55,488 nucleotides of DNA from Candidatus Buchananbacteria bacterium (GCA_903863425.1 CAIPBY010000086.1:1-55488), one strand, 5' to 3'; counted from the first letter of the stretch, positions 3,901 to 55,488 are shown. Made by a program: numbers and translations. The notes: generated by a model not told the origin, from the sequence alone.

Positions 3901-6900
3901 TCCATCACCGCAGACATTGAGATCCTGGCAGGTGCTAAATTTAAAATCTGCCCCCAGATTAAATACGGCAGGAGTAGGGGTGGATTCACAGCTGAGACCG
4001 GAACCGAAACCGCATCCGCAATCTATCCAGCAGGATTTGCAATCTTCGGGGGATCCGTTGATAACCGCTTTATGTTGAGCGGCAAAGTTATTAGCAATAA
4101 GAGAATAAACTCCATTAGCAGGCGGGTTTTGCAAACCATCATTGCAATATCCATCACCGCAATTTATATCAGCTCTATTGAAAGCTTCAGGATGATACCC
4201 GCCAAAAGGATTATATCTCATCAAATTCACACTCTCCCAAGTCGGTCTCCATTTATCTCCATTGGCATCAAATTCTCCATGGGCAAATAAACCATATCCC
4301 GTGCCATTCATCAGGGCGCTATAGAAATAAACCGAGGAACTGGATTGTATAGAGCTGAACATAGTCGAGCTGGCCACATTCCAGCAAGTGCCCGAATCGA
4401 ATGGCGAGACACAGCCGAATAACCTGTTTATCGGATCAACCGGCAAGCCGAAGCCCAGAAGCTTGGATAAATTATCCTGCCAAGACGGCCAAACACTGAA
4501 AGTTCTATTGGGAATATAAGTGCCGGAAGAAAGATTAGGATAATAATTGGAGCAAGTGCCTCCGCCGTAGCAATCATGGCCGTCATTGCACAATCTGTAC
4601 TGATCATTACTGCATCTCTTCTTATTATAAAAACTATTCAATAAATAATTCACATCCTGGATGTCGGAGAGACGCTTGGTATCGCGAGTCAAGCTGGCCT
4701 TGGAAGAACTGCAGTAGCCCGCGCCCAAGCTATGGCAATCGGAATCACTCAAGCATGGAGGCTGGAAGCCATTACTACAAACAGAAGATTTAGCAGATAT
4801 CAGGACGCAAGTGCCCAAGTCCTGCTTCAAAGCCGGCTGATCGTTGTATTTCCAATCACAATCGGAATTAACTTTGCAAGCATATTTGATGGCGCCACTG
4901 CACAAACCGATGCTTTCGTCCAATCCGCCATTGGCTTTGGTGCCGGCATTGAAACGCCAATTATTCACCATTTGATTGCAGATACTGACGGCATTGGCAT
5001 TAGCGCCCTCGCTATATGACATCAAGAAAATATCACCGAAAATATTGCCTGCAATAGATTCAGTTGGCGTAGTAGTATTTATGTCCGTGGCATTGGCATA
5101 AACCGTTCGCCCGACACTGATGGCATCATAATCGTCTATGGATAATCCCTGGACGCCGGAAGCTCCATTGAAAGTATTGCTATACCAATAATACGGCGAA
5201 TAATGATTGTTGTTGGTCATCACCCTGATGCCGATGGCATCACTGTTGTAGGAATAAAGCTTGAGGTTATAAATAGTTAAATTGGAATCAACTGGTGGTG
5301 CATAACAATCATTAGTCCAATGCATAATTATCTTGTGCGGGCCGTTGGTCAAATCAAATGAAGCGGTGCGAGTGGTCTGAGGGTCATCGGGATTAGTCGC
5401 TATCGGAGTAATCGTATCAATTAAATTACTTTCTGATGTAGTAGCATCCACATATACCTCTACGTTGTGATAAACCTTATTGTCGGTAGTCGTGCAATTA
5501 CCCAGACCACTTCCAGTTAATGGATAAGTTATATTACTGTCATTAGAAGTTTCCAAAGTTAAATTGTACTGTCCAGCCGTGGTAGTGCCAAGATTGAAGG
5601 TAACTTCAGAACCAATAGCAGCATCCCAGTCTCCGTACTGAACTAATCCTCCAAGAGTACTGCTAAATTGGACTTTATATTTATTAGTTGATGCCGTATA
5701 AAATATAGCCTCACTCCCCAACAAAAATTGAACCGGAAATTGGTTATTGGAAATAAACAAGAAATCCTTCACTTTGCGGTCGCAAGTCTTCTCAAATTCA
5801 TTATTGGCTGAATAATTTATGCCATCAAATGATTTATAACTCTTCTGGCCATCCCACAAAATTATATTATTGCCTTCAACATAACCCACATCTGGGTTGA
5901 AGTTGGCGGGCAAGCCGTTAATGACAGTAGGACGATCGACAGCCACCCAACCAGGATTATTCTGATATAATTTACCGCTTCTATCCCACATCTGAGCATC
6001 TATTCCAGCATCTATTCCAGTTTTATAATAAGCGACCGCAGGAACAACTTTATTCGCAGACATATCTTTAACAATGTCTACTAATGCCCAGCTGGTCCCG
6101 CTAGGATAATGCGTGCCCTTACCGAATGCATCCCATAAACTAATTATACCCCCTGCTCCTGGATGATAATACCCGCCATAAGGTCTAAATCCTTTGGGCA
6201 GTCCTTTGGATATTGTAGCTGTATTTTTTGTCCACCTCTCATTAGCGCCAACAGCATGAGAATACTCATACATATTCCCATCATAATCCCAAAGCTGAAC
6301 TACTTTATTTGTGTCATCATAATACCCTACGGTCGGACCGAAATTCGGTGGCAAGCCCTTCTCGGCCAAAGCGCCTCGAGAAACCAGAAGCCAGCCCGTA
6401 TTACTGCTCGCATAAACCACACCACTAGCATTCCAAAGATAAGTCGTAGAAGACGCGCCGTCGTAATACCCTACTCTAGGTGTGAAATCATTGGGAAGAT
6501 TAGGACAAGTCGAAGTGCCCAAGCCGGATACGGCCGCTTTCCAACTGCTGGAAGCGTTATTGTACGAGCCGATGGCTGGCAGATCATCCGCGGTATAGAG
6601 CTGACAGCTTCCACCCGAACAATCCGCATTGGTTTTGCAAGCACTGCCACCGTTGGTACCACCCACACAGACATCCATGGTCCCGGCATCACGGCAATAC
6701 CAAGTTTCGAAGTTAGTATTCACGCATCCGCCATAAGCGCAATTGTCGGCAGAATCCGAGAACAGAGGATTCCTCGTGCCCGGCCAAGGATTCTTGCAGA
6801 ACATGATTCTAATATCCACGGTGGTGCTGGCTCGAGATGATATATTGTCGCCAATTCCGCTTCTAATTCCGTTATTAGCATTTATATATAATTGAGAGCG

Positions 6901-9900
6901 CCCCTGATTAACTCCGCCGGTAATCCAACTGCCTCCGTTGTAGAAAGTAGACGAACTGAATTCTGCCCTAGCCGTTCCCACATTATATGGAACAGACACC
7001 AGAGAGAAATTACTGAAATTAGCTCTGACTAAATAATTCTTGGGGGCGGAGGTATAAGCCCAAGCTCGATACAAATGCTGGTTGCCATCCCTGAATCCGG
7101 AAGGAGTGCTGGTTATCTGATAATTGGGATTCCAAGGAGCCGAAACATCATCATCATAAGCATCATTGGGAGTGTCTAAGCCACAATTCTCTCCTTTGCA
7201 GAAGAAAGCATCTACATTTTTGACTTCGCCTTTGGGCCAAGCGTTGACATCGACATTTTTGATAGAGCAAGTACTGGTCGTAGTCTTGTAGTCATAATCC
7301 CTCGGCTCGGAATAAGTCCTAATAGCTTGGGTCGTAGTTGCCACCATGCCGGAGATATCATCCTGCGCATACAAGACGACCACTCGATAAGGCGTGCCTG
7401 TGGCCCAATCATCACTGCGGGTATAATTTATGACTCTTCTATCGCCAGGATCAGGATAAGCAATGATACGGTTGTTCGGCGTAGTGCTATCAATAGTCGT
7501 AGTGGCCTCATAATTGCCCAGATCAATTGAATGAAGCTTTACAGAATCATACTGCTCGTTGGAAATTCTGCACCAATAATTCTCAGCAATAGCAAATCTG
7601 ATGCCCAAGAAATCTCTAAGTACAATTTTCACTTTTCTGACTATTTTTTGGAAAAACGAGAAAGAAGTGAAAGAGTCGGTGGTGGTATTGCATAAACTTG
7701 CATTCGGATTTGAACTGCTGACAGCGCCTTTGTAAATGTTTACCGTCGAGGAACTGATGGAATTCTCCAGCGAGATCTGCCAAATTCCATTGGGGCAAGG
7801 ATTAATGTTAATTTTTGCCGGCTCGCAGATTTCAGGATTCTGAGCCACATTAAATGTCCAGGAATAATAATTATTCTGACCGTTTTCAATGACGCCATTA
7901 CCGCAAGTGGGCGAAGCAGATCCTTCCCACAGACAACCATTTACTCCGCTTTCCGTTCCCTTGCAACCGTCACCGCTAACCACCTTTCCATCATCGCATT
8001 GCTCCCCTTTCTCCACCTTGCCATTACCACAAACCGGGACACTAGGCTGTGAACCAGTAAGTAGGTTTGTACCATTCAAGCATTTTCCGGTATTACAGCT
8101 GCCACTTAAACAATCTGAATTAGTACCGCAAGTGACAATATTGCAAAAATCGGAATTATCGGAAGTCGAAGAGCAAACACCAATTCCTTTGCCAAAATTA
8201 GAAGCATGATCTACTCCTCTCTGCCAAAGGCAAGTATTGGAATCACATTTATTGCTTGTATTTAAGGCTGAAGTGCCAAAATCACACTCCTCGCCTTTTT
8301 CTAAGCAAAGCCCGTTGATACACTTACCTTTATTGCAATCACTGTCTTTCGTGCAAGTTCCGCCGTTTCCGCAAAGCGAACCGTATTTATTCTTATTTGA
8401 TCCTTCAAATAAACAATTTGAACTGCAACTATCACCATTTACAATATTGCCATCATCACATTCCTCACCTGGTTCAACTTTGCCATTTCCGCAAGAAGCG
8501 AGATTCTTATTGCCTTTATTGTGACAATTAACATCACAATAGGTCGTGCCTATGGTTGAGGTAGTGCATTCTTCAAATCTGGTTCCGCATAAACTAATAT
8601 CGTTTAATTTACAGGTAGTAGCACTGCAAACTCCAGATAAAGTATTCCACGGATAAGTGCTGGATTCACAAGCTTCACCGGCAGTATTATTTGATAACTT
8701 AAAATTCAAATCGGTCAAACCATCGCCCGCCCAAGAAACAACTCCGCCGACTCCGCCTTGAACCGTCACTCGATACTTGCCTGCTAATAGTCCAGAAGTA
8801 GTGGCAACCATTAAATTGGAAAACTTAGGGTTAGGGTTATTGGTATATTCAAATGTATTAAGGCTAACTGGATAAAGTCCTCTAAGAGCTACGCTTGAAA
8901 GAGAGGCAGACCTATTACAATCTGGGTTATCACACTTCCATAGATTTATATTCTTCTGTAAAATCATTGAAGTACTCGATGCCTGATCGCTGAAATATAA
9001 TTTAACATCCGGATTACTGCAACTGGTGTCATTCGGAAAATGAGCATCAATGCTGAAATTACCCGTGCCAACCTTCAATTGTCCGGAACTGGACACATCC
9101 TGGCCATTGTATCCGTTTGTCTCCGTTCCGTCAGGGCTACTACTTAATGCTCTGGCTTTGATATTGACTATCGGGCCTTCGGCAATACCCCAAACCATCA
9201 CTTGATTGATAAGAGGATTGGCGTATGAAGCGCAAGGAGTGCTGGTAGCACTCTCATTGCAAATATCGGCAACTTTAATGCTTGTGCCTCCATAATTAGA
9301 ATCGAGAGAATTGCCCAAATTAGCTGCGTCATCAGACAAATTAAATAATGAGCGCCAATTCCATTTGAAAGAATTCGGATTCAAGACGGTGCCGATATTG
9401 TTGGATATGCCGGAATTATCCATGTTGCAATTATAAGGTATGGCCGTGTATTTCTCGCCGAGAGGCACAAAAGGCATATAATAATTATACGGGGAGACAT
9501 TGATATACTGTATTTTGCACAAACTGCTTCCTGTCTTGAAGTACCAATAGTAATCGGGCGGATCAATCTGGTCGGGGAAATTAGTAAAATCAGTATTATA
9601 AATTCCTTGGGGCAATTCAACTGAAGATCCCGGGGTTGTACTAGCTGAATGCACTCCCTCATTATAGGCGGGAACGAGGGAATCATTACCCAAGACAATG
9701 ACGCGATACCAGATATTGGGAACTAATTTTTGTCCGCTCGGAGGATAAGCAAAAAATCCTTCGGGAGTATTGGAGGCATTGGGATCTTGCTCCAAATCAA
9801 TCATACTCACCTCGGGGTGGCTGTAAGAGAATATTTCCACTGGCCAATTTTCTTGAGTTATGCATTCTCCTCCGGTTATAGGAGAAGAGGTGGCGCTTGA

Positions 9901-44824: not shown

Positions 44825-44888
44825 TTCTGTAGTGGTAGGCCTATGTGCCTACCCAAATGGGCAACCACAAGGGTTGCCCCTACAACCT

Positions 44889-44962
44889 GGATCGGTAGAT
44901 CAACTGGTTAGATCGCGTCCCTGTCACGGACGAGGTTGCGGGTTCGAGTCCCGTCCGGTCCG
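44889..44962 (+). tRNA. tRNA-Asp (GUC)
   Basis: GGATCGG-TA-GATC-AACTGGTTA-GATC-G-CGTCC-CTGTCAC-GGACG-AGGTT-GCGGG-TTCGAGT-CCCGT-CCGGTCC-G. No CCA is encoded. Confidence 0.85.
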
Positions 44963-46585
44963 CATAACGGAACAATTAGACGCTAAAGCGTCTTTTTTGT
45001 TTGTATTCATTGATGTTTCTGCGGTTATAGTGGACTGCTTATTGCTATTGTACTCAAAAATGAATCTATGTGGCGAAGTTTCATTATTTGCCAATACTTT
45101 CGCGGTTATTGTCGGGTTATAGTAGATGAACTGAAAAATATCTCTTCTTTGCTCTGGTGATCCATTTTTAAACTTGATATTTAGATTCTTCATAAAATCA
45201 ACATACCGAGTACAAAGGTCAAACCAGCGCTGACTCTGGCTCTCAGTGTCTTCCATTTTCTCTTTAATTATCTTAATTTCTTCTTGGGTCTCCTTTTTTT
45301 GATCTATAAATTCATTATCAGTTAATAGATTGCCGTCTTTATTGTCGGGAGATATTCTTAACCGCAATAAGTTGTCTAATCGTTGCTTACAGCGATTTAA
45401 CTCCGCTTGTTGTTGTTTAATAATGGCTTCCTGTTGCGAGAGTTCTTTTTCGTTTTCGGCAGTTATCTCTTCCATGGCCAACTTATAAAAATCTTCATCC
45501 ATAGTTAGCTCATCCATCTTCTTAGATATTTGCTCCTCCAACTCAGTCTCTCTGATGTAACTTAATCCTGTGCATTTACAACAACGATAGTACGGTAGGC
45601 CTTTTGAAGTAATACCAGAAATATTTCCACCACAAATACCGCATGCAATTAGGTTAGAATATGGATAAAAGCGTTTTTTGCCGACAGGTGTGCTTCTTAA
45701 TCCCAATACTTCTTGCACCCGCTCAAATAGCTCTTTACTAATTATTGGATCATGTCTCGTCTCTGTCGGTGATTCGTAGGGCTCTATAATTCTGCCCGTC
45801 CATCTTATTCCTCCATAATAAAATGGATTAGTCAAAATACGATATAGACTTGATTTAACCATTTTCTTTTCACTTCTACCGCCAGTTAAGCCCCATTTGA
45901 ATGCCTCGCCCCTTAATTTATCAAGCGTATAATGACCAGTGGAGCACTCCTCAAATAATTTCATTATTAACGGGTATAAAAAGGGATCTTTCTCAACTCT
46001 TTTTAATGGCCGTCCTAGATCGCCAAGCGCTACTTGTTTATCTAGCGAGTAAGTCTTGCCAGATATCTTGCCGTTAGGATCAATATTTAAATATCCCCTT
46101 GGAGCAAAATTTGGTATTTCACCTTTATTGAGTTTAGATTGGATATCTCTTTTAACAAACTCCGAAGTATCATCGGAGCTTTTTTTAGACATAGCAAATT
46201 GGAGGGCTAGAATAAACTCTTGTCCTGAATTCTTGGCGTATATTTCATGCGGAGTTCGCACTTCCTTGATGATGCCCTCTTTAAGCATATCCATTATTAG
46301 GCCTGCATCTCTCATATTTCTTGATAAGCGCGAAATATGGTATACCAAAACGGCATTAGCTTTGCCTTGCTCTATAAGCTCAATCAATTCGGCAAACTTG
46401 TCTCTGCCTTGCTTGTATGCTGATTGCGCCTCCTCTAGATCGGCGACAATTTTTAGATCGTGCTGATTGGCAAACTTAATTAGCTCTCTTTTTTGAGAAT
46501 CTAAACTTAAGGTCTGCTTATCCTCACCCTCAGAGGATTTGCGCCTGTAAATAATGTATTTTAATTGTTCTGGCTTATTTTCCAT
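44924..46585 (-). CDS. Large serine recombinase (integrase)
   Basis: MENKPEQLKYIIYRRKSSEGEDKQTLSLDSQ is the resolvase catalytic N-terminus with the Ser nucleophile region. LVYHISRLSRN and the zinc ribbon CGICGG..YYRCCKC precede a coiled-coil. The start is set at 46585; the track's upstream Met at 46630 lies in an inverted-repeat region. The last 13 codons plus the stop are encoded by the antisense of tRNA-Asp. Confidence 0.85.
   Translation of the reverse strand: MENKPEQLKYIIYRRKSSEGEDKQTLSLDSQKRELIKFANQHDLKIVADLEEAQSAYKQGRDKFAELIELIEQGKANAVLVYHISRLSRNMRDAGLIMDMLKEGIIKEVRTPHEIYAKNSGQEFILALQFAMSKKSSDDTSEFVKRDIQSKLNKGEIPNFAPRGYLNIDPNGKISGKTYSLDKQVALGDLGRPLKRVEKDPFLYPLIMKLFEECSTGHYTLDKLRGEAFKWGLTGGRSEKKMVKSSLYRILTNPFYYGGIRWTGRIIEPYESPTETRHDPIISKELFERVQEVLGLRSTPVGKKRFYPYSNLIACGICGGNISGITSKGLPYYRCCKCTGLSYIRETELEEQISKKMDELTMDEDFYKLAMEEITAENEKELSQQEAIIKQQQAELNRCKQRLDNLLRLRISPDNKDGNLLTDNEFIDQKKETQEEIKIIKEKMEDTESQSQRWFDLCTRYVDFMKNLNIKFKNGSPEQRRDIFQFIYYNPTITAKVLANNETSPHRFIFEYNSNKQSTITAETSMNTNKKDALASNCSVMRTGRDSNPQPRP
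44978..44998 (+). terminator. Intrinsic terminator after tRNA-Asp
   Basis: AGACGC-TAAA-GCGTCT followed by TTTTTT. Confidence 0.75.
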
Positions 46586-46732
46586 ATTTTTATAATTCAA
46601 AAAGGGACAACCGAACTGTTGCACACACATTATAAAACAGAGCGTTTTTTAATGAGTCAGTCAGTTGTCCCTTTTTGGGCAATAAAAAAACTCTATTTCT
46701 GAATGTGTGTGCAATTAAATGATACCATAAAT

Positions 46733-46894
46733 TTATCTACTAGTAAAACTGGGCGAGGGGTCGGGATAATTGACTATTTTAATAATTTTAACTAGTCGTG
46801 AGAATATTTCAAATGCTTCCTGTCGTGATAATTTGATTGAGTATTTCTTTTCATACAAATCAATAAATTTTTTCAAGCGTTGTTCATTAACCAT
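46733..46894 (-). CDS. Hypothetical small protein (53 aa)
   Basis: MVNEQRLKKFIDLYEKKYSIKLSRQEAFEIFSRLVKIIKIV... A strong SD-like GGGAGGG lies 6 nt upstream of this ATG. The track's longer version starts further upstream. Confidence 0.5.
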   Translation of the reverse strand: MVNEQRLKKFIDLYEKKYSIKLSRQEAFEIFSRLVKIIKIVNYPDPSPSFTSR

Positions 46895-47067
46895 ATAACC
46901 CTCCCGAATCATGGCGAACAATTTTAGTGAAAAGCGAAACAACCTCAGTGCGACTGAATTTATTAAAATAATATTTTATTGAGATTATTTTGCTGGTCAT
47001 TTATTTATCTAACTTATTAAAGTGTTGGCTCTTGAGGTTGTTTAAAACCCCAAGAGCCAGTAATTAT

Positions 47068-47316
47068 TTATTTCTTCTTGGCCTCAGAGATGATTTTTTT
47101 GCTCTTGTTTAGTTTTTTATTTTTCTTCTCCTCAGAAAGCACTGGACAGCTATCAAGCGAGCAATTGTCATGATCTTTGCATATTTTTTCGCAATAGAAT
47201 GACGACTGCATTTTAACCAAATCAATCAGCAAGTCTATTGCATATTTCTTGGGCATAATTTCGAAATCTTTCTTGAGATCAGCTACGCGAGCCAACCATA
47301 GTTTCTTTGGTTTCAT
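47068..47316 (-). CDS. Hypothetical small Cys-containing, Lys-rich protein (82 aa)
   Basis: ORF only. It contains CEKICKDHDNCSLDSCP. Confidence 0.45.
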   Translation of the reverse strand: MKPKKLWLARVADLKKDFEIMPKKYAIDLLIDLVKMQSSFYCEKICKDHDNCSLDSCPVLSEEKKNKKLNKSKKIISEAKKK

Positions 47317-47507
47317 AGTTTTGTTATTTAGTTAATAATTTAATTTGGTCTTTTCGACCCGACCGCGCGCACCACACCCATGAGATTATGGCTTACTACT
47401 GCTATAGCTAGGGCTAATACTAGGCACTAGTACAAAGTGCATAATTAACTCCTCAACTCTGCACCCCCTAACAATAATGTCTTTACGGCCGCCAATTGTG
47501 CAAAATT

Positions 47508-48317
47508 TCAGCATTTGCTTGTCTGGCAGTGGTGCTGATTTGGCGGTCGTCTAGACACCACTCTCAGGGCATATCCAGTAAAGTAAAATATATCTGGATA
47601 TCTAGCGGCTAGATAGTGTCCGTGCGGTGTTTTACATTCAAAGTACTTGTAAAAATCCTCATGTATTTCTTTACCTATCTGTTTATCTGGCATTATTTCA
47701 TCATTGTGAAATAGCCATTGTCCAAACTTTTCGTTGATTTTAAGGTGCTTATAGAATCTGATATTTTTTTCCTTCTTTGCTTTGGCAACCCTGAGATTAT
47801 CTCTAATAGTCGTCACACATAGATTTAGCGCCTCACTGGCTCGACTTTGGGATATTCTGCCATAGGTTATCCGTCTATATTTTGGCTTCTTCCGCAAGTC
47901 ATTTTCGAAATATATTTTAGTGATGTAGGCGGACAATTTTTTGTTGGATGAAAGATTTTTTAAAAAGATAGTATTGGCTCGCTCGGTTCTTATTATTGTT
48001 CGTCCATAGCGTAATCTATGCTTATTCATAATCCTTATCGCTGAAACTGGAAACATCTTTTGCTTACTGACATATCGGAATAGTCCAGATCTCATTAGCT
48101 TTCTCTTAAACAATTTGAATTGTTTGATTTTAACAACTTTCATTACTTGAGTAGTATCTGCCCAATTGCCCTGATTAGCACATAGCGTTCTTGTTGCCAG
48201 CCACGCTCTTAATCCTAACAATTGATCAAAATGATGCTTACAGAAGTGAAATAGAATGCGAATGGGAATATTAGCAAGTTTCGGCTCACCCCTGTTTTTA
48301 GGTTTTAGATCTTTCAT
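47508..48317 (-). CDS. Hypothetical basic protein with a probable HTH (possible replication or regulatory protein of the element)
   Basis: 269 aa and Arg/Lys-rich. ISQSRASEALNLCVTTIRDNL looks like an HTH. I recognise no family. Confidence 0.45.
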   Translation of the reverse strand: MKDLKPKNRGEPKLANIPIRILFHFCKHHFDQLLGLRAWLATRTLCANQGNWADTTQVMKVVKIKQFKLFKRKLMRSGLFRYVSKQKMFPVSAIRIMNKHRLRYGRTIIRTERANTIFLKNLSSNKKLSAYITKIYFENDLRKKPKYRRITYGRISQSRASEALNLCVTTIRDNLRVAKAKKEKNIRFYKHLKINEKFGQWLFHNDEIMPDKQIGKEIHEDFYKYFECKTPHGHYLAARYPDIFYFTGYALRVVSRRPPNQHHCQTSKC

Positions 48318-48570
48318 AGTATTGATTTAAAATTGATTCATTTATGGCTATTTGCAGTTCTGGGTCGTGAATTTTTATAAAGCTGAGGTACTTGCCATTT
48401 TTTTTAGTTGTTGGGTTCTTAACTACTGGATTTGGGTATGTTTGATTATGCAAAACCGTAAAGCCGATTATTTCTATGGCTTCGTTAATTACGACATTAG
48501 CTGTGGCTTTCAGGCTCGTGGTCGTTTGAGGTGTTAACCTAAATTTAGTTATTTTTATTTGGTGAATCAT
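48298..48570 (-). CDS. SpoVG-like small nucleic-acid-binding protein
   Basis: 90 aa. IKITKFRL..SLKATANVVINEAIEIIGFTVLHNQ...KKNGKYLSFIKIHDPELQIAINESILNQY parallels B. subtilis SpoVG ([29 protein letters not shown]...[27 protein letters not shown]), as recalled from memory. Confidence 0.45.
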   Translation of the reverse strand: MIHQIKITKFRLTPQTTTSLKATANVVINEAIEIIGFTVLHNQTYPNPVVKNPTTKKNGKYLSFIKIHDPELQIAINESILNQYYERSKT

Positions 48571-48661
48571 GTTGAGTGGCTGAAATAAAATGAAAAAACA
48601 AAAAAAGTATCATGTCTTAATGATACCTTTTTGAGCTTTTAAAATATAAGAAATAAGTGTA

Positions 48662-49441
48662 CTACAGTTTTTTCTTCCTTTCTCTAATTATGGTTTTGAT
48701 CCTACGTGTTTCAGCATACCCATAGTTGCTTTTTGAGATAAATGTTTCCTGAACTAGTTTTCCTAGCTTGGCGTCTTCCATGTCTATGTGTGCCTCAATA
48801 AAATCTAGAATTTCTTTTTTTGGTTTAATCCTAATTCTTCCAATTTTACAATTTCGATCTTGGAGTAATTTTAACCTTGGCCTAATTTGTGTTTTATAAT
48901 TTTTTTCTACATAATCGACAATATCCCTTCTAGAGGCGTAAGGGCTGATTCTGATTGAAATAGGGAAATACTCATATGCTGCTTCATCATCTTCCTTTCT
49001 ACATCCCATAGCGCAAATAGTATTTACTGGCTCTCTTGTTGGTTTTCTTGTGGTATTGAATAGTATATATACCAGCATGGGTACAGCCCAATAAGTATAG
49101 TACAATTTATATTCTTTACATATATTTTCTGCTTCATTTTTAAGCGATAATATTAGTGAATGATCGCTTAATGGGAAATCAATCTCTAGACCCTCTTTTG
49201 GTATAGACGAGTAATGAGATATTTTAATCATCTCGGCATAGTTTTCTAAATTTTCTGGCGTATATCCATTGAGGGGTATATTGTATTTTCCCCTAATCCC
49301 AGCTATCTGCTTACTAACTTCATCTAATTTGATTATAGCCAAAAAATAATTCCAAAGTTTCTCAAATCCTTGGCTTTTTCTGGGTCTTATTTTCTTTCGT
49401 TTTAGATCTGGTAGTTTCATTTTTTTAGTCGGTTGGCACAT
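48662..49441 (-). CDS. Hypothetical protein (259 aa)
   Basis: ORF only. An alternative start gives MKLPDLKRKK (49420). It is followed by the hairpin GTATCAT..ATGATAC (48607-48626), which is flanked by A and T runs. Confidence 0.5.
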   Translation of the reverse strand: MCQPTKKMKLPDLKRKKIRPRKSQGFEKLWNYFLAIIKLDEVSKQIAGIRGKYNIPLNGYTPENLENYAEMIKISHYSSIPKEGLEIDFPLSDHSLILSLKNEAENICKEYKLYYTYWAVPMLVYILFNTTRKPTREPVNTICAMGCRKEDDEAAYEYFPISIRISPYASRRDIVDYVEKNYKTQIRPRLKLLQDRNCKIGRIRIKPKKEILDFIEAHIDMEDAKLGKLVQETFISKSNYGYAETRRIKTIIRERKKKL

Positions 49442-49698
49442 GTGGATTTAACTAGTTTTTCCCATCCCACGGCCTTTTTGAAGATTCTAATATGGGTTTC
49501 AGACAAAATTTAACCCCCCTATCTTTTTGGGACAGCACACATAAATAAATTAGTGTTCGCTGGGGTTATTTTTTATCTAAGAATAAACAAAATAATACCA
49601 CTTTATCCTATCAATTTATCTACCACTAAAATATATTATCAAGAATATAATTATATTATACATAAAAATCTGGTATTTAGCCTCTTTTTTAGTATTTA

Positions 49699-49727
49699 TT
49701 GAATTTATTGTCTAGTTTTGATATAGT
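49699..49727 (+). promoter_or_regulatory. Sigma70-like promoter
   Basis: TTGAAT (49699-49704), a 17-nt spacer, then TATAGT (49722-49727). It sits in a long AT-rich divergent intergenic region. Confidence 0.5.
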
Positions 49728-49758
49728 AGGAATACAATAATGACCTAAATTACTAGAT

Positions 49759-49885
49759 TCTAGTGACATGGTCGCAAGTCCAGTTAGACATGAAGAACCC
49801 ATCATGTGTTTTTTGTCTAACTGGCCGTTTCGGGAAACCGAAATGAGTGGCGCAAGTCACTAGACTCACGTGGTGGGCTTTTTGA
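49759..49885 (+). ncRNA. Structured 5' leader or small RNA with mutually exclusive helices and GNRA tetraloops
   Basis: TCTAGTGAC (49759-67) pairs with GTCACTAGA (49856-64). CCAGTTAGACA (49780-90) pairs with TGTCTAACTGG (49813-23). TTTCGG-GAAA-CCGAAA is a hairpin. GTGGC-GCAA-GTCAC competes with the first helix. CCCATCATGTG (49798-808) pairs with CACGTGGTGGG (49868-78), followed by CTTTTT. Confidence 0.45.
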
Positions 49886-49904
49886 TTGTTTAAATTAAAA
49901 AAAT

Positions 49905-50132
49905 ATGAAGTTTATATTTTATTTTTTAGTGAGCTATCTCTTGTATGGTGCTTTTTTGATTGGGCGCGATTTTACTACTAACTGGAGGAATGCTCCTGAA
50001 TATGTGCGAGATCCCAATCCAGTCATGATAATTTATGCCTTAATCCGTAAGCCATTATTGATCAATGGTGTCGCCATGTGCTTGGTAATAGTGGGTGTGA
50101 TTGGGCTTATTCTGTTTTTTATATTCGGTTAA
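49905..50132 (+). CDS. Small two-TM membrane protein (75 aa)
   Basis: MKFIFYFLVSYLLYGAFLIG... and LLINGVAMCLVIVGVIGLILFFIFG. Confidence 0.5.
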   Translation: MKFIFYFLVSYLLYGAFLIGRDFTTNWRNAPEYVRDPNPVMIIYALIRKPLLINGVAMCLVIVGVIGLILFFIFG

Positions 50133-50136
50133 TCAT

Positions 50137-51588
50137 ATGGATAAACCAATGAAAACTCGCCTAACCCCGCCAGAGTGGTTCGTTTTGTTTCTCCGCGACA
50201 AGAAGTACCCGAACGAAGACAAGGGCTCATTAAATAGAGCAGAGTTCCTGGCCTTGAATAACTGGAAACCGAGGAAAGATGAGGAAAAGGAATTCAATCA
50301 ACTCATGAGCCAATGGCAGAATATCTTGTTTGCGGAGATAGGCGCTAAGATGGCATTTTACGGCCTTGAGTGGCAGTGTTTTAAGGCCAGAGACTGGTTG
50401 ATGTATTTCAGCTATAAGGATCAAGAATTTGGTCTATTAAAGAATTATGTGGAGAATCACATAAACTCGTCAACATTTGACCCGCTGGATATTCTACTTA
50501 GAAATAGCTGGATTGAATTTGACCACCTGACATATCTGCTGACTTTTGAATTGATGGATTTGGGACTGCGCAAGGATTTATGGATTTGTGATCGCAATGT
50601 CATGTTAGTAGAGAACTATTTGAGGGATCAAGAAACTGTCGCCGACATATTGATTGTCAATGGCGGCCTCACTGAAGTGGCCAAAGAAAAGATAGCCGAG
50701 GCCATAGTCAACAAAATGCACTGCGGCGCTTATCCCGATTATCGATTTTTTCTGTATTGGTATGACTTCATTATGTTCCCAACCATAGAAATAGGCAGAA
50801 GATTTGTTAAGCGCCATAATGTTTATTGTTTGCCGACAGAGCAGGAGAAGAAAGAGCATAAATGCGCCAGCTCTAAAATACTGGAAGAATTCACCTTAAA
50901 AAGAGCAATAGTTGATCATGTCCAGAAATACAACATTAACTTAAAAGAGCAATTCCAAGATATTGCCAAGGAATTATTGGATGAGGGATTGTTGGAAACT
51001 CTCCCGCTTTTCTGGGGCAATAGCAATCAGATTAAGGGCGATAAAGGAGAACACACCAATTATAGCGGCCAGAAGCTATATGATGAGTGGAAACGTTATA
51101 AAGGCTTGGCCGAAGCTGAATTACAATATTTGGTCAGTGGCGGATCGCTGGAAGTAGGTTATCTGGACAAACGCAAATATTGTTCCTTTGCTAAGGAGGA
51201 AAATAAAGTTGTCTCGGCTAAGAGCTTGTATGAGCTAAAGAGCGATTATGGGCTGGTCAGGGATTTTAAACAACAGATGTCTGATCTGCAATTTCTCGGC
51301 CCTATGATAAGTCTGTGGGACAAGAAGAGTTATGGAAGCAATCGCTTGATTCTTTCGCAGTCGACGGAGACCATCAAAAAGTCAGCCGAGATTCTCGGAG
51401 CCGATTTTAGCGATAAGATCGAAGAAATTAAGGGCTACATTGATGAACTAGATAAGCTCGCAAAAAAAGTTGATGATCAGGCCGATAGCTTGGTTGACTG
51501 CTATGTGGCCAACGGTTGGAATAATACAGCAACAAGAAAATTTTCTATCAGAATTAAATTGTCTTCACTAAAAGATCTACAATTATGA
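50137..51588 (+). CDS. Hypothetical 483-aa protein, no recognisable family
   Basis: The start was moved to MDKPMKTRL (ATG 50137), 4 nt after the upstream stop. It overlaps the SppA start by 4 nt (ATGA). Confidence 0.6.
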   Translation: MDKPMKTRLTPPEWFVLFLRDKKYPNEDKGSLNRAEFLALNNWKPRKDEEKEFNQLMSQWQNILFAEIGAKMAFYGLEWQCFKARDWLMYFSYKDQEFGLLKNYVENHINSSTFDPLDILLRNSWIEFDHLTYLLTFELMDLGLRKDLWICDRNVMLVENYLRDQETVADILIVNGGLTEVAKEKIAEAIVNKMHCGAYPDYRFFLYWYDFIMFPTIEIGRRFVKRHNVYCLPTEQEKKEHKCASSKILEEFTLKRAIVDHVQKYNINLKEQFQDIAKELLDEGLLETLPLFWGNSNQIKGDKGEHTNYSGQKLYDEWKRYKGLAEAELQYLVSGGSLEVGYLDKRKYCSFAKEENKVVSAKSLYELKSDYGLVRDFKQQMSDLQFLGPMISLWDKKSYGSNRLILSQSTETIKKSAEILGADFSDKIEEIKGYIDELDKLAKKVDDQADSLVDCYVANGWNNTATRKFSIRIKLSSLKDLQL

Positions 51589-52412
51589 AATTCTACCTAT
51601 CGTCAAAAATTAAGAAAATAGTCAAAATTACATCTATTGTTATTCTTGCTGTAACAGTAATAATTTTTTGGGTTGTCGTCTCTTGTTTGTTTATTGACGA
51701 GTGGCCAAGTAATAATAAAGATAAGAGTGATTGTAACGTGGCCAACATCAAGTTGTACGGCGATTTATATACCTATGTCAAAGAAACTGATGATTGCAAA
51801 GATTGCGCCTCATCAGAAGAAGTGGTTAATCAGATCAGGGACGCTGAAGCAAATAATGATATTAAAGCAATATTACTTACTATTGATTCTACTGGTGGCA
51901 ACCCTGTGGCGGCCGAAGAAATTGCCAACACCCTAAAACAAGCGAGCAAGCCAACCGTGGCTCTAATAAGAAGTAGCGGTGATTCTGGGGCATATTTTGC
52001 AGCTACTGGCGCTGAGAGAATATTTGCCAGTGACATGTCAGATGTAGGATCAATAGGTATAACTTCTTCGTATGTAGATAATTCTAAAAAGAATCAGAAA
52101 GATGGCCTGACATATAATTCGCTCAGTCTTGGAAAATACAAGGATACTGGCAATCCAGATAAGCCATTAACCGATGAAGAAAAGAAAATGATATTAAATG
52201 ATTTGCAAGTTGGCTATGATATATTTATTAAGAATGTGGCTAATAATAGACACTTAGATATAGAGAAAGTTAAAGCGCTGGCTGATGGCAATAGTATGGA
52301 TGGTCAAAAAGCCTTGGATAATGGCCTCATAGATCAATTAGGTAGTTTGTCGGATGTTGAGACATATTTGGCCAATAAGATCGGCGGAGAGACACTATAC
52401 GTCTGTCGTTAA
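51585..52412 (+). CDS. sppA: Membrane-anchored S49 family signal peptide peptidase (SppA, 36K type)
   Basis: An N-terminal TM segment. IKAILLTIDSTGGNPVAAEEIANTLKQASKPTVALIRSSGDSGAYFAATGAERIFA contains the Ser nucleophile region. SIGITSS, GKYKDTGNPDKPLTDEEKKM and DGQKALDNGLIDQLG also fit. Confidence 0.8.
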   Translation: MKFYLSSKIKKIVKITSIVILAVTVIIFWVVVSCLFIDEWPSNNKDKSDCNVANIKLYGDLYTYVKETDDCKDCASSEEVVNQIRDAEANNDIKAILLTIDSTGGNPVAAEEIANTLKQASKPTVALIRSSGDSGAYFAATGAERIFASDMSDVGSIGITSSYVDNSKKNQKDGLTYNSLSLGKYKDTGNPDKPLTDEEKKMILNDLQVGYDIFIKNVANNRHLDIEKVKALADGNSMDGQKALDNGLIDQLGSLSDVETYLANKIGGETLYVCR

Positions 52413-52540
52413 AACAATAATTGAAACAGCGAGAGCGGACATAGAATCCGCTCTCGCTTTGGCTTTGACTTTTACGCTCAAATATGGCATTATAAAAGCA
52501 ATTTAACTCCCAATAAAATATAATATCAACGAAATAATAT

Positions 52541-53992
52541 ATGTTTGAACAATCATTCAAAAACATCGATAACATCCTCCACACCGACTCTGGCTGTGGC
52601 ACTGAGCTTGATTATGTTGAGCAGACATCCTGGATCCTATTTTTGAAGTATCTGGACGACTTGGAAGAGACCAAAAGGATCGAAGCGGCGTTGGCGGGGA
52701 AGGTCTATGATCATATATTGATGCCAGAATATACCTGGGACAGCTGGGCTTGTCCCAAAGGTAGCGACGGCAAGCTGGATCACAACAAAGCGTTGGATGG
52801 CGATGATTTGAAGGATTTTGTTGATCACAAACTTTTTCCTTATCTTAAGAAGTTTAAAGCGGAGGAACCGAACACTATTGAATATAAAATCGGTGAGATT
52901 TTTTCTGAGCTCAAAAATAAGATCTCTAGCGGTTATAAACTCCGTGAGATTTTAAACATCGTTGACGGCATGCACTTTCGACTGTATGAGGAGAAGCACG
53001 AACTATCACATCTCTACGAGGCCAAAATCAAGAACATGGGTAACGCTGGACGAAACGGCGGAGAGTATTACACACCTCGTCCACTCATTAAAACTATAGT
53101 CAAAGTAGTAGCGCCCAAGATTGGCGACACTATATATGACGGAGCTTGTGGCAGCGCAGGATTTTTGGTTGAGGCTTACAATTATCTCACTCAAAATCAA
53201 TCAGAACTTTCCTCAAGTCAAATGGATACTCTTCAAAATAATACTTTTTATGGCAAGGAGATAAAATCGTTGGCCTACATTATTGGCATTATGAATATGA
53301 TTCTTCATGGTGTTGAAGCGCCGAATATTAGGCACATGAATACCTTGTCGCAAAATATAAATGAAATTCAAGAGAAAGATCGTTACTCAATAATTTTAGC
53401 AAATCCGCCATTTGGCGCTGGTATCGGCCGAGAGATTCAACAGAATTTTCCAATCAAGACTGGTGAGACTGCTTTTCTCTTTCTCCAGCACTTTATCAAA
53501 ATTCTTAAGGCAGGCGGTAAAGCAGGTATCGTCATCAAGAATACTTTCTTATCTAACACCGATAATGCCAGCGTGTCATTGCGCAAACTGCTCTTGGAAA
53601 ATTGTAATCTACATACCGTATTGGACTTGCCAGGTGGCGCATTCCAGGGCGCTGGTGTGAAGACTGTGGTTTTATTTTTTGAGAAGGGCGCGCCGACAGA
53701 GAAGATTTGGTTTTATCAATTAAACCTTGATCGCAATCTTGGCAAAGGCCAGCCACTAAGCGAAGCTGACTTGGCCGAGTTTGTGGAATTACAGAAGACA
53801 AAGACCAATGGCGATAATTCATGGAGTATTGATATTAAAAATATTGACCAGTCAACTTTTGATTTGTCAGTAAAGAATCCTAGTAAGGGTGATGAAGTTG
53901 CTTTGCGTGAGCCGAAGGATATAGTCGAAGAGATAAAAAGATTAAATGAAGAAGCTGAGCAAACTTTGAAGGAAATCAGTAAAATTCTATAA
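52541..53992 (+). CDS. hsdM: Type I restriction-modification system methyltransferase subunit
   Basis: The HsdM N-domain (DYVEQTSWILFLKYLDD), GEYYTPRPL, motif I DGACGSAGFLV and motif IV ILANPPFG. Confidence 0.9.
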   Translation: MFEQSFKNIDNILHTDSGCGTELDYVEQTSWILFLKYLDDLEETKRIEAALAGKVYDHILMPEYTWDSWACPKGSDGKLDHNKALDGDDLKDFVDHKLFPYLKKFKAEEPNTIEYKIGEIFSELKNKISSGYKLREILNIVDGMHFRLYEEKHELSHLYEAKIKNMGNAGRNGGEYYTPRPLIKTIVKVVAPKIGDTIYDGACGSAGFLVEAYNYLTQNQSELSSSQMDTLQNNTFYGKEIKSLAYIIGIMNMILHGVEAPNIRHMNTLSQNINEIQEKDRYSIILANPPFGAGIGREIQQNFPIKTGETAFLFLQHFIKILKAGGKAGIVIKNTFLSNTDNASVSLRKLLLENCNLHTVLDLPGGAFQGAGVKTVVLFFEKGAPTEKIWFYQLNLDRNLGKGQPLSEADLAEFVELQKTKTNGDNSWSIDIKNIDQSTFDLSVKNPSKGDEVALREPKDIVEEIKRLNEEAEQTLKEISKIL

Positions 53993-53996
53993 TGTT

Positions 53997-55460
53997 ATGA
54001 AATTAAAATCCATTAAGATTCTAAATTATAGAAGTGTCGAAGAAGTAATTATTGAGATAGACTCGTTAGATGATCGAAGTTTTACTTATGGACTAATTGG
54101 TATAAATGAAGCAGGAAAAAGTAGTATCCTGAAATCATTGGCTCTTTTAGATGAACACACAGGAATAAAACCCGAAGCGCATGATTTTTATGACAAGACA
54201 AAGCCCATTGAAATAATTTATCTTTATAATCAATCCAAAGAGGAAATAGCAGAAAATAAAAGTATTCTATTAGAAAAATTACCAGAGCTTAAGACTAAAA
54301 TAGAAAATCGTGAGCTTGAAGAGGTTGAGTTAAAGGGTGGCTTTTTAATTACTGATTTACAAAATAAAAAAAGTATTATTTTTTCAAAACTTTCTAGTGA
54401 TCAAAAAGAATTGATCGAAAATACTTTGGCTGATACTGTTTATGCAAATTCGCATTATACTATTTATTGGAAATCTGAGGACAAATATCTTATTTCTAGT
54501 CAGATTAGTTTAGCGAGTTTCTCTGAAGATCCTAGTAATGTTTCTATCCCGTTAAAAAATTGTTTTACTCTTATTGGTCTAGATACAAAAGAAAAGATCA
54601 AAGAAAAAATCATTCAGATTTCCAATGATTCGACAGAGCGAGAATTGCTTCGTGAAGACCTTGGTAAAAAAGTTACTAACTTAATAAAAAAGGTATGGCC
54701 AAACCATCCAGTTGTTATTACTTTTGATATTTCGGGGGATTCTATTAACTTTCACATTAAAGATCCAAATGGTAAACCTCGAACTACCAATCAAAGAAGC
54801 GATGGCTTTAAGCAGTTTGTCTCTTTTCTTCTTAATATTTCTTCTCAAAAAGAGAATAATGAACTATCAGATAGTTTAATTTTATTAGATGAGCCAGAGA
54901 CACACCTACATCCTCAAGCTCAAGAGTATTTTTTAGCAGAATTGATAAAATTAACTCAATCGGAAAATAATATCTGTTTTTTTGCTACCCATTCAAATTA
55001 TATGGTAGATAAAAATATTTTATCTAGAAACTTTAGGGTGGTTAAAGTTGAAAAAGACGGCAAAACCATGATCGAAAGGTTGAATAAAAAAATATCAACC
55101 TATGCCAGTGTTAATTATGAAGTATTTAATATTTCTAGCACTGATTACTTTAATGAATTGTATAGTTGTTTGCACCAAAAATATATTGACGAAGCAATAA
55201 ACGAAGGAGAAGAAAAAGAAAGAAGTTTTATAAAAAATTTTGATAAAGACTATCTACTTCCTAAATCTAAGAAAAAAAATAAGTGGAAACACCTTAATAA
55301 AAAAGGAGAAGAAATTGAAGAAAATATTTCTATTTATTCATATCTGAGACACTTAATTCACCATCCAGAAAGAAGAGAGGCAAATAAATTATTTTCTTTA
55401 GATAAAGATTTGTCTGTGTGTATAGAAGAGATGATTAAAATTAAAGAAGATGAAAAATAA
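53997..55460 (+). CDS. ABC-type (AAA_15/AAA_21, OLD/RecF-like) ATPase inserted in the type I R-M operon; the C-terminal domain may be HEPN-like (PrrC/RloC-style)
   Basis: Walker A GINEAGKSSILKSL, a signature-like RSDGFKQ, Walker B plus D-loop LILLDEPETHLHPQAQ, and an H-loop FFATHS. The C-terminal roughly 130 aa contains YSYLRHLIHHPER (an Rx4H pattern). The ORF starts 5 nt after the hsdM stop and overlaps the hsdS start. Confidence 0.65.
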   Translation: MKLKSIKILNYRSVEEVIIEIDSLDDRSFTYGLIGINEAGKSSILKSLALLDEHTGIKPEAHDFYDKTKPIEIIYLYNQSKEEIAENKSILLEKLPELKTKIENRELEEVELKGGFLITDLQNKKSIIFSKLSSDQKELIENTLADTVYANSHYTIYWKSEDKYLISSQISLASFSEDPSNVSIPLKNCFTLIGLDTKEKIKEKIIQISNDSTERELLREDLGKKVTNLIKKVWPNHPVVITFDISGDSINFHIKDPNGKPRTTNQRSDGFKQFVSFLLNISSQKENNELSDSLILLDEPETHLHPQAQEYFLAELIKLTQSENNICFFATHSNYMVDKNILSRNFRVVKVEKDGKTMIERLNKKISTYASVNYEVFNISSTDYFNELYSCLHQKYIDEAINEGEEKERSFIKNFDKDYLLPKSKKKNKWKHLNKKGEEIEENISIYSYLRHLIHHPERREANKLFSLDKDLSVCIEEMIKIKEDEK

Positions 55461-55488
55461 TTGGCAAACAAAAAAACTTGGTGAAGTC
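55450..55488 (+). CDS. hsdS: Type I R-M specificity subunit, with only the first 13 codons in the window
   Basis: ATG AAA AAT AAT TGG CAA ACA AAA AAA CTT GGT GAA GTC translates to MKNNWQTKKLGEV, the classic HsdS N-terminus (W..xKLGEV). It overlaps the ATPase stop by 11 nt. Confidence 0.6.
   Translation, partial: MKNNWQTKKLGEV

Follow-up and report, generated by a model that had tools for sequence, protein, structure and literature searches.

The tRNA-Asp end of this contig is probably the left attachment junction (attL) of a ~16-kb island inserted by a large serine recombinase (LSR), with the phage-type attachment site attP lying within the recombinase's own open reading frame and the C-terminus of the enzyme depending on the integration state. 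The window that we analysed (55,488 nucleotides) is the entire contig C86 of a Candidatus Buchananbacteria genome of 1.12 Mb in 101 contigs (G000); the far end of the island lies on contig C94 (Table 1). In the mechanism that we propose, the LSR would insert the island at the final bases of the only tRNA-Asp gene that the host has. In the free form, attP lies inside the 3′ end of the recombinase gene, which encodes a 566-aa enzyme whose last 24 residues (EKVDEVITFFKEYRGYYYIPKLSN) are specified past the crossover. Integration moves the 24 tail codons 16 kb away to attR and joins codon 542 to tRNA sequence read antisense, such that the integrated gene ends in 11 filler residues and then a stop where the anticodon loop reads TCA. 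The tRNA-Asp gene, in turn, gains a new terminator, encoded antisense in C-terminal codons of the recombinase.

Table 1. Coordinates of the features at the integrated island; positions are those of the window unless a contig is named.
Feature	Position	Strand	Remarks
Large serine recombinase gene, integrated form	44924..46585	-	553 aa + stop; residues 1-542 element-encoded
Host tRNA-Asp(GTC) gene	44889-44963	+	ARAGORN; anticodon 44923-44925; B′ side of attL
Part of the recombinase ORF antisense to the host tRNA	44924..44959	-	11 codons TGRDSNPQPRP + TGA at tRNA nt 35-37
attL core CCGCAT (ATGCGG on the recombinase strand)	44960-44965	+	tRNA C71, C72, G73, C + AT
P arm of attL with element-borne rho-independent terminator	44966..45003	+	hairpin + T-run 44978-45003
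Small ORF, 69 aa	46733..46942	-	just upstream of the recombinase; no Pfam match
Island, left 10.5 kb	44966..55488	.	other 5.5 kb on C94 (reverse complement), up to attR
Cargo genes	49905..55488	+	Pfam
attR core	C94:23-28		tail codons C94:29-100; tail stop C94:101-103

The recombinase frame is open over 44924..46630 on the minus strand, its likely start being the ATG at 46585 according to the ORF call. In the integrated form its C-terminus reads ...KKDALASNCSVMRTGRDSNPQPRP, and its TGA (44924-44926) lies opposite T35-C36-A37, part of the anticodon loop CTGTCAC (44921-44927) of the tRNA-Asp gene, which is preceded by the host genes infC, rpmI and rplT. ARAGORN and the ORF call together bear out the claim of an earlier note on this DNA that the recombinase ORF terminates in the anticodon loop. 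The note had also described the ORF as running antisense through the terminator and 39 nt of the tRNA; the antisense path stands, but the overlap is 40 nt with the stop included. Similarly, it had ascribed the recombinase C-terminus to tRNA and terminator sequence, which holds for the last 11 residues, but KKDALASNCSVMR is encoded by the element and the terminator is itself element-borne.

The protein is an LSR, since Pfam detected in it the Resolvase (PF00239, 2.2e-19), Recombinase (PF07508, 4.8e-9) and Zn_ribbon_recom (PF13408, 5.2e-6) domains; these matches are to serine-recombinase domains only, and none is to a tyrosine recombinase domain. Across an alignment of 25 sequences (A1, numbered on the 568-aa form), Y28, R30, S32, R76, R101 and R104 are invariant, as are the zinc-ribbon cysteines C330, C333, C350 and C353. 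The ORF in the window is intact over its 553 codons, without stops or frameshifts, and all invariant catalytic residues are present. Its matches in the PDB, the A118, SPbeta and TP901-1 integrases, are distant (E ~1e-4). The AlphaFold model of the homologue P0003 (77% identical) contains two long antiparallel helices (364-411 and 423-466, pLDDT ~90), and by homology to it the window protein is predicted to have a coiled-coil insertion in its zinc-ribbon domain.

Upstream of the recombinase, the 69-aa ORF is conserved along with the enzyme in the homologous loci L002 and L004 (the region of nucleotide homology, 46895-44960 in the window, covers both) and is a candidate for a regulator or directionality factor. 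Directly upstream of the recombinase start, at 46587-46714, lie two nested imperfect inverted repeats with arms of 28-31 nt that are 81-82% complementary, which may form an operator or regulatory hairpin. In L002, a tyrosine-integrase gene (PF00589, L002:1918-3042) immediately precedes the small ORF and the LSR gene, so the element that encodes the homologue P0002 has two site-specific recombinases.

A database search returned 323 recombinase homologues, which come from Patescibacteria, and the best 120 of the 323 were inspected for their C-terminal ending. A tail of the W/M-R-x-x-R-D-S-N-P type, which is an antisense tRNA T-arm, was found in 79 of these 120, and RDSNP-type tails occurred in homologues solely where a tRNA lies antisense. 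A minority of homologues continue after ...CSVGR with h-[DN]-x-[VI]-[RI]-T-[FY]-[FW] and, further on, Y-I-P-x-L. P0002 (81% identical) and P0003 share homology with the window protein up to ...CSVGR and then read RILNEVRTYF... or EKVDEVITFF..., and their contigs are collinear with the window up to GCGG(A), the reverse complement of the final tRNA bases, with divergence setting in exactly there. Because collinearity breaks at the tRNA end, we conclude that attP is present uninterrupted in these contigs, within the recombinase ORF; such attP-form homologues come from metagenomes. No tail common to the homologues irrespective of tRNA context was seen; the attP forms have a different, conserved one.

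The free-form tail motif is missing from the window (six-frame search) and is found on C94. A whole-genome search located the tail REKVDEVITFFKEYRGYYYIPKLSN, which matches the P0003 tail with 92% identity, at the start of this contig (26-100), and attR thus carries an in-frame 24-codon tail, EKVDEVITFFKEYRGYYYIPKLSN, followed by a stop. C86 ends in 37 nt that overlap exactly with the reverse complement of C94, the join falls inside an intact two-domain hsdS ORF, and the DNA past the tail stop on C94 is homologous to that following the tail stop of L004, an attP-form contig. On the recombinase strand, attL reads ...TGTTCCGTT-ATGCGG-ACCGGACGGGACTCG, the latter part being tRNA, and attR reads GGCGATTTTTTGGGAA-ATGCGG-GAGAAAGTGGACGAAGTT...; as attL and attR have only ATGCGG in common, this hexamer must contain the crossover. 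The block GCGG is common to attL, attR, the attP of L002 and L004, and the attL and scar of the same-genus genome G001, and a dyad-symmetry scan weakly favours its GG as the crossover dinucleotide (10-11 matches of 24).

When the left part of attL and the right part of attR were joined in silico, they gave a 566-aa ORF (542 + 24), which is the length of P0003, with a reconstructed attP of ...TGTTCCGTTATGCGGGAGAAAGTGGACG.... The reciprocal join of attR-left and attL-right gave a reconstructed attB, tRNA-Asp...CCGCAT-TTCCCAAAAAATCGCC, whose flank TTCCCAAAAAATCGCC resembles the native terminator 3′ of tRNA-Asp in G001 and G013. Likewise, the host-side flank of attR, AAAAAATCGCC..., 22 nt long as C94 ends there, matches the native tRNA-Asp terminator of these two genomes. 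Comparison of the island ends with each other and with relatives thus shows the att anatomy, the state-dependent C-terminus and, as reconstructions, attB and attP. It bears on three points of the earlier note. The att junction, which the note had placed at or very near the 3′ half of the tRNA, does lie at the tRNA, but at its extreme 3′ end (CCGCAT) and not within the 3′ half. Among relatives lacking the island, whose comparison the note had proposed for defining attB, G013 has the tRNA-Asp gene with a native terminator that matches the host flank of attR. Finally, the expectation that excision would change the recombinase C-terminus is supported by the attP-form homologues and by the in-frame attR tail. 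As a separate observation, the detached tail can be read in frame from the ATG that opens the core ATGCGG (C94:23-103), as a 26-codon micro-ORF (MREKVDEVITFFKEYRGYYYIPKLSN), and the core ATG and tail are likewise in frame in G001, G008 and two scars on contig C4.

Searches of the window, C94 and the genome revealed no displaced tRNA fragment, the window contains no direct repeat that would mark the far end, and the whole genome holds one copy of the tRNA-Asp end. The island accordingly differs from Islander-type elements, in which attP carries a tRNA 3′ fragment and a displaced copy marks the far end; here the core has 4 tRNA nt. The lack of long direct repeats at the island ends is expected of a serine integrase. 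A spare inverted attP was also sought, in the window and the genome, and none was found in the island.

The tRNA-Asp(GTC) gene is the sole tRNA-Asp gene among the 41 tRNAs that ARAGORN called in the whole genome, and it is 98% identical to the tRNA-Asp gene of the relative G008. Because just 4 tRNA nt lie in the core, the gene stays intact upon integration. Its terminator, a stem-loop at 44978-44993 followed by a T-run, lies inside the recombinase ORF: the opposite strand of this region encodes the recombinase residues KKDALASNCSV, the hairpin being antisense to the codons for KKDALAS. The hairpin is kept with compensatory changes in relatives that target tRNA-Asp, and a stem of at least 7 followed by a T-run was present in 22 of the 54 loci whose ORF runs antisense into a tRNA (described below), versus 3.4% of control windows inside the same ORFs. 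The terminator is element DNA that replaces the native tRNA-Asp terminator.

We examined how widely this geometry recurs in a family test of 75 related LSR loci taken from one-genome-per-species contigs. At 54 of the 75, the recombinase ORF runs antisense into a tRNA, namely tRNA-Asp (20), Asn (15), Ser (9), Trp (5), Gln (3) or His (2); among the other 21, some reach a contig end, and L068, L079 and L084 have the free-form tail. Given that 79 of the 120 best homologues and 54 of the 75 genome loci share it, the antisense-tRNA ending is not due to chance. As only 3 of 40 distant viral LSRs, which served as a control, run into a tRNA, the ending is specific to this LSR clade. The stop in the anticodon loop was considered as a selected trait in its own right and rejected. 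It falls exactly at tRNA nt 35-37 at 22 loci, all of them with tRNA-Asp or tRNA-Asn, whereas at Trp, Gln, His and Ser targets the ORF ends elsewhere or reads on. Since the Asp or Asn anticodon together with A37 reads TCA or TTA, as in 22 of the 22 exact cases, the stop is a by-product.

All four LSR genes of G000 end in tRNA or tRNA-like antisense sequence. The other three paralogues (C18:6219-8033, C66:5388-6886 and C101:236-1843) have as their targets tRNA-Pro(GGG), tRNA-Gln(CTG) and a T-arm-like sequence without an ARAGORN call; this single 1.1-Mb genome thereby holds four tRNA-reading LSR elements.

It could be argued that the recombinase is a resolvase or invertase lying beside the tRNA by chance and that some other mechanism inserted the island, as the latter lacks a displaced tRNA fragment or long direct repeat. 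We regard this as extremely improbable: missing long repeats are just what a serine integrase predicts, the homology with the attP forms breaks exactly at the tRNA end, the missing tail is present in frame at the other island end, the same geometry recurs in 54 of 75 relatives with six tRNA types, and the domain set is that of a phage-type integrase. From these sequence relationships, we infer that this recombinase itself would move the island, in both reactions.

The island totals ~16.0 kb and includes small ORFs. Its cargo in the window comprises genes for a small membrane protein and a 495-aa protein, an S49 peptidase operon and then a type I restriction-modification (R-M) system, of which hsdM, an embedded AAA_15 ATPase gene and the start of hsdS fall within the window; C94 carries hsdS, hsdR, a 292-aa ORF without a Pfam match and a PD-(D/E)XK nuclease gene. 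The attP-form contig L004 also encodes a homologue of the 495-aa protein, oriented as here with respect to the recombinase gene. Pfam detected no tyrosine integrase in the island (window and C94) and recognised no capsid or conjugation genes there.

The distribution of the element in relatives is sporadic. A 75%-identical orthologue occupies the same rplT-tRNA-Asp site only in another genus (G022) and is absent from the same-genus G001, which has at tRNA-Asp an 830-bp remnant whose end is a tail scar (MRERVDEIIAF...), and after it the host terminator; G013 has tRNA-Asp and its terminator, with neither LSR nor scar. G000 itself contains at least 9 degraded tail scars; five lie on C4, within 8 kb and all facing the same way. 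This sporadic distribution, the G001 remnant and the many degraded scars fit repeated integration and decay. The scars in the genome, the retention of just a scar by G001 and the usefulness of defence cargo to the host could also be taken to mean that the present island is an immobile remnant with a decaying or domesticated recombinase, the tRNA overlap being a frozen scar. We deem this improbable in view of the intact 553-codon ORF with its full set of invariant catalytic residues, and of an intact, in-frame attR tail that shares 92% identity with its counterpart in the attP-form relative.

The scars on C4 (875-10600, L141) comprise five attR-like sequences in the same orientation, each with a GCGG core and EKVDxxITFF or RVIDDVRTYF codons. 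Some are preceded by LSR 3′-end remnants, giving hybrid attP-like junctions. A flank of host type, CCGCATTTTC..AAAAATCGCCTAAATG, recurs two or three times in the region, and a 300-nt stretch is duplicated (4528-4827 and 9546-9845). In its arrangement the region looks like an accretion array of decayed elements, which may lie downstream of the same tRNA-Asp gene; the assembly probably broke off where C94 starts because of the repeated flank.

What the exchange of tails would mean for the enzyme is a separate question from the anatomy, and here our reading is tentative: it is quite possible, if short of probable, that the enzyme of the integrated copy differs in function from that of the free copy owing to the tail swap. 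In the version that we prefer, the full-length enzyme would drive attP x attB recombination, and the tRNA-tailed form would be attenuated or biased towards attL x attR. The conservation of the free-form tail bears on this point. Over its 24 codons, C94 and L004, one close pair, show 7 synonymous against 2 non-synonymous differences (pS 0.51, pN 0.03); by our own binomial estimate with ~19% synonymous sites, the chance of 7 versus 2 is ~2e-4, which argues for purifying selection on the tail peptide, as seen in this one close sequence pair. In addition, the Y-I-P-x-L motif lies 45-66 bp from the core, past a typical 25-bp half-site, and LSRs with no more than 30-40% identity still share the tail motif.

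The same anatomy might, however, be explained by an attP that overlaps a dispensable ORF end in a compact element, with the swap having no functional effect and the tail being kept for folding or stability, as attP P′ arm or as the gene's own terminator, unrelated to the integration state. This account is a serious rival, which we rate only slightly below our preferred reading. The catalytic and DNA-binding domains all lie upstream of the att junction (Pfam, AlphaFold), and C-terminal extensions differ among the serine integrases studied to date. Moreover, the first ~8 tail codons overlap the expected P′ half-site and their GAC-GAN-GT is conserved at the DNA level too, so some of the tail conservation could act on DNA, as the tail partly overlaps the P′ arm of attP. 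In the AlphaFold model of P0003 (mean pLDDT 84.5), the tail docks onto no domain: it has a pLDDT <50, for which reason the structure gives no clue to its role, and an undocked helix (532-554) spans the junction. Harder to reconcile with a swap devoid of effect are the mainly synonymous tail changes, the position of Y-I-P-x-L outside the typical half-site and the retention of the motif in LSRs so divergent.

A stronger form of the functional reading, which we consider unlikely, is that the tail swap constitutes a built-in directionality switch without a separate factor, or that the detached tail acts in trans. As a switch, the 566-aa enzyme, made from the free circle only, would solely integrate, and the 553-aa tRNA-tailed enzyme, made from the integrated copy only, would be competent for excision. 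In trans, the tail would be made as a 26-codon micro-ORF from the ATG of the attR core and would modulate the enzyme. Such a switch, if real, would be a self-encoded state sensor of serine integrases, spread across a large clade of CPR elements.

With phage-type LSRs (Listeria A118/LI, SPbeta SprA, TP901-1, phiC31, Bxb1) the enzyme shares the Resolvase and Recombinase domains and the zinc ribbon with coiled-coil insertion, as well as short att sites without long repeats and the integration of a circular element. It is distant in sequence (E ~1e-4 to solved structures) and differs from them in targeting a tRNA 3′ end, in having attP inside the ORF and in a C-terminus set by the integration state; to our knowledge, the targets of known phage-type LSRs are protein-coding or intergenic, and their attP lies outside the int ORF. 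The closest analogues of this arrangement are tyrosine integrases, those of the myxophage Mx8 (IntP/IntX) and of SSV1. The attB sites of Mx8 are also located at tRNA-Asp genes. In Mx8, attP lies inside the int coding sequence, and on integration the gene becomes recombinant and acquires another 3′ end (PMC6070905, PMC4383910); according to a review, the altered Int stays active with changed properties (PMC6070905). The likeness lies in the attP core within the integrase ORF (566 aa free versus 553 aa integrated here), and by analogy our preferred functional reading, of a recombinant enzyme active with altered properties, may parallel Mx8, a comparison that we offer tentatively. Unlike this LSR, Mx8 Int is a tyrosine recombinase with other chemistry, long arm-type att sites and a much larger C-terminal segment swapped.

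The 'suicidal' integrases of archaeal viruses and plasmids, of the SSV1 type, likewise have attP within the ORF, and their gene is partitioned when the element inserts into a tRNA gene (PMC7253208, PMC4383910). Those are tyrosine enzymes, and neither piece of the gene is active; the present ORF, by contrast, retains 542 of 566 residues and every domain. The tycheposons of Prochlorococcus are cargo elements at tRNA genes, a minority of which have an LSR rather than a tyrosine recombinase (bioRxiv 10.1101/2020.12.28.424599); the consulted portion of that preprint describes partial-tRNA direct repeats at their ends and contains no description of an attP within the ORF or of a tail swap, and the host phylum is another. 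According to the literature, tRNA genes are not among the known targets of serine integrases (PMC4383910), in agreement with the earlier note, to which such targeting by an LSR had seemed unexpected. A full-text literature search found no published LSR that spans its own attP, nor any description of this arrangement for a serine integrase.

Together with its 54 relatives, the locus shows that a whole LSR clade targets tRNA genes, in a geometry by which the enzyme of the free element differs from that of the integrated one. How the C-terminus controls a serine integrase can thus be studied here as a natural experiment. In genome engineering, large DNA is inserted mainly with serine integrases, and the control of their direction, integration versus excision, is an active structural question. 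Island finders that rely on displaced tRNA fragments would miss these elements, which also represent a route for defence cargo (in this case, the type I R-M system and its embedded ATPase) among ultra-small CPR bacteria, in which mobile elements are poorly known.

Some further features were observed around tRNA-Asp genes in this group. The spacer between rplT and tRNA-Asp in the window (44826-44888) is GC-rich and hairpin-forming and has an 84%-identical copy at C97:168-228; it is a small repeated intergenic element. In G008, a genome in which no LSR was found, a perfect palindrome, CCGCATAAATAAAATCACCCC-AAAATTT-GGGGTGATTTTATTTATGCGG, lies just 3′ of tRNA-Asp (L020, contig C27) and is followed by an inverted P′ arm and the tail MRRILNEVRTFFQEKL with its stop; in sequence, this junction resembles a spare inverted attP, or the product of recombination between inverted sites. 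Lastly, in G001 (contig C8, L006/L025), a ~400-nt insert between rplT and tRNA-Asp contains a small ORF that looks GIY-YIG-like by eye and is flanked by partial copies of the 5′ part of tRNA-Asp (GGCTCAATTGGTTA...).
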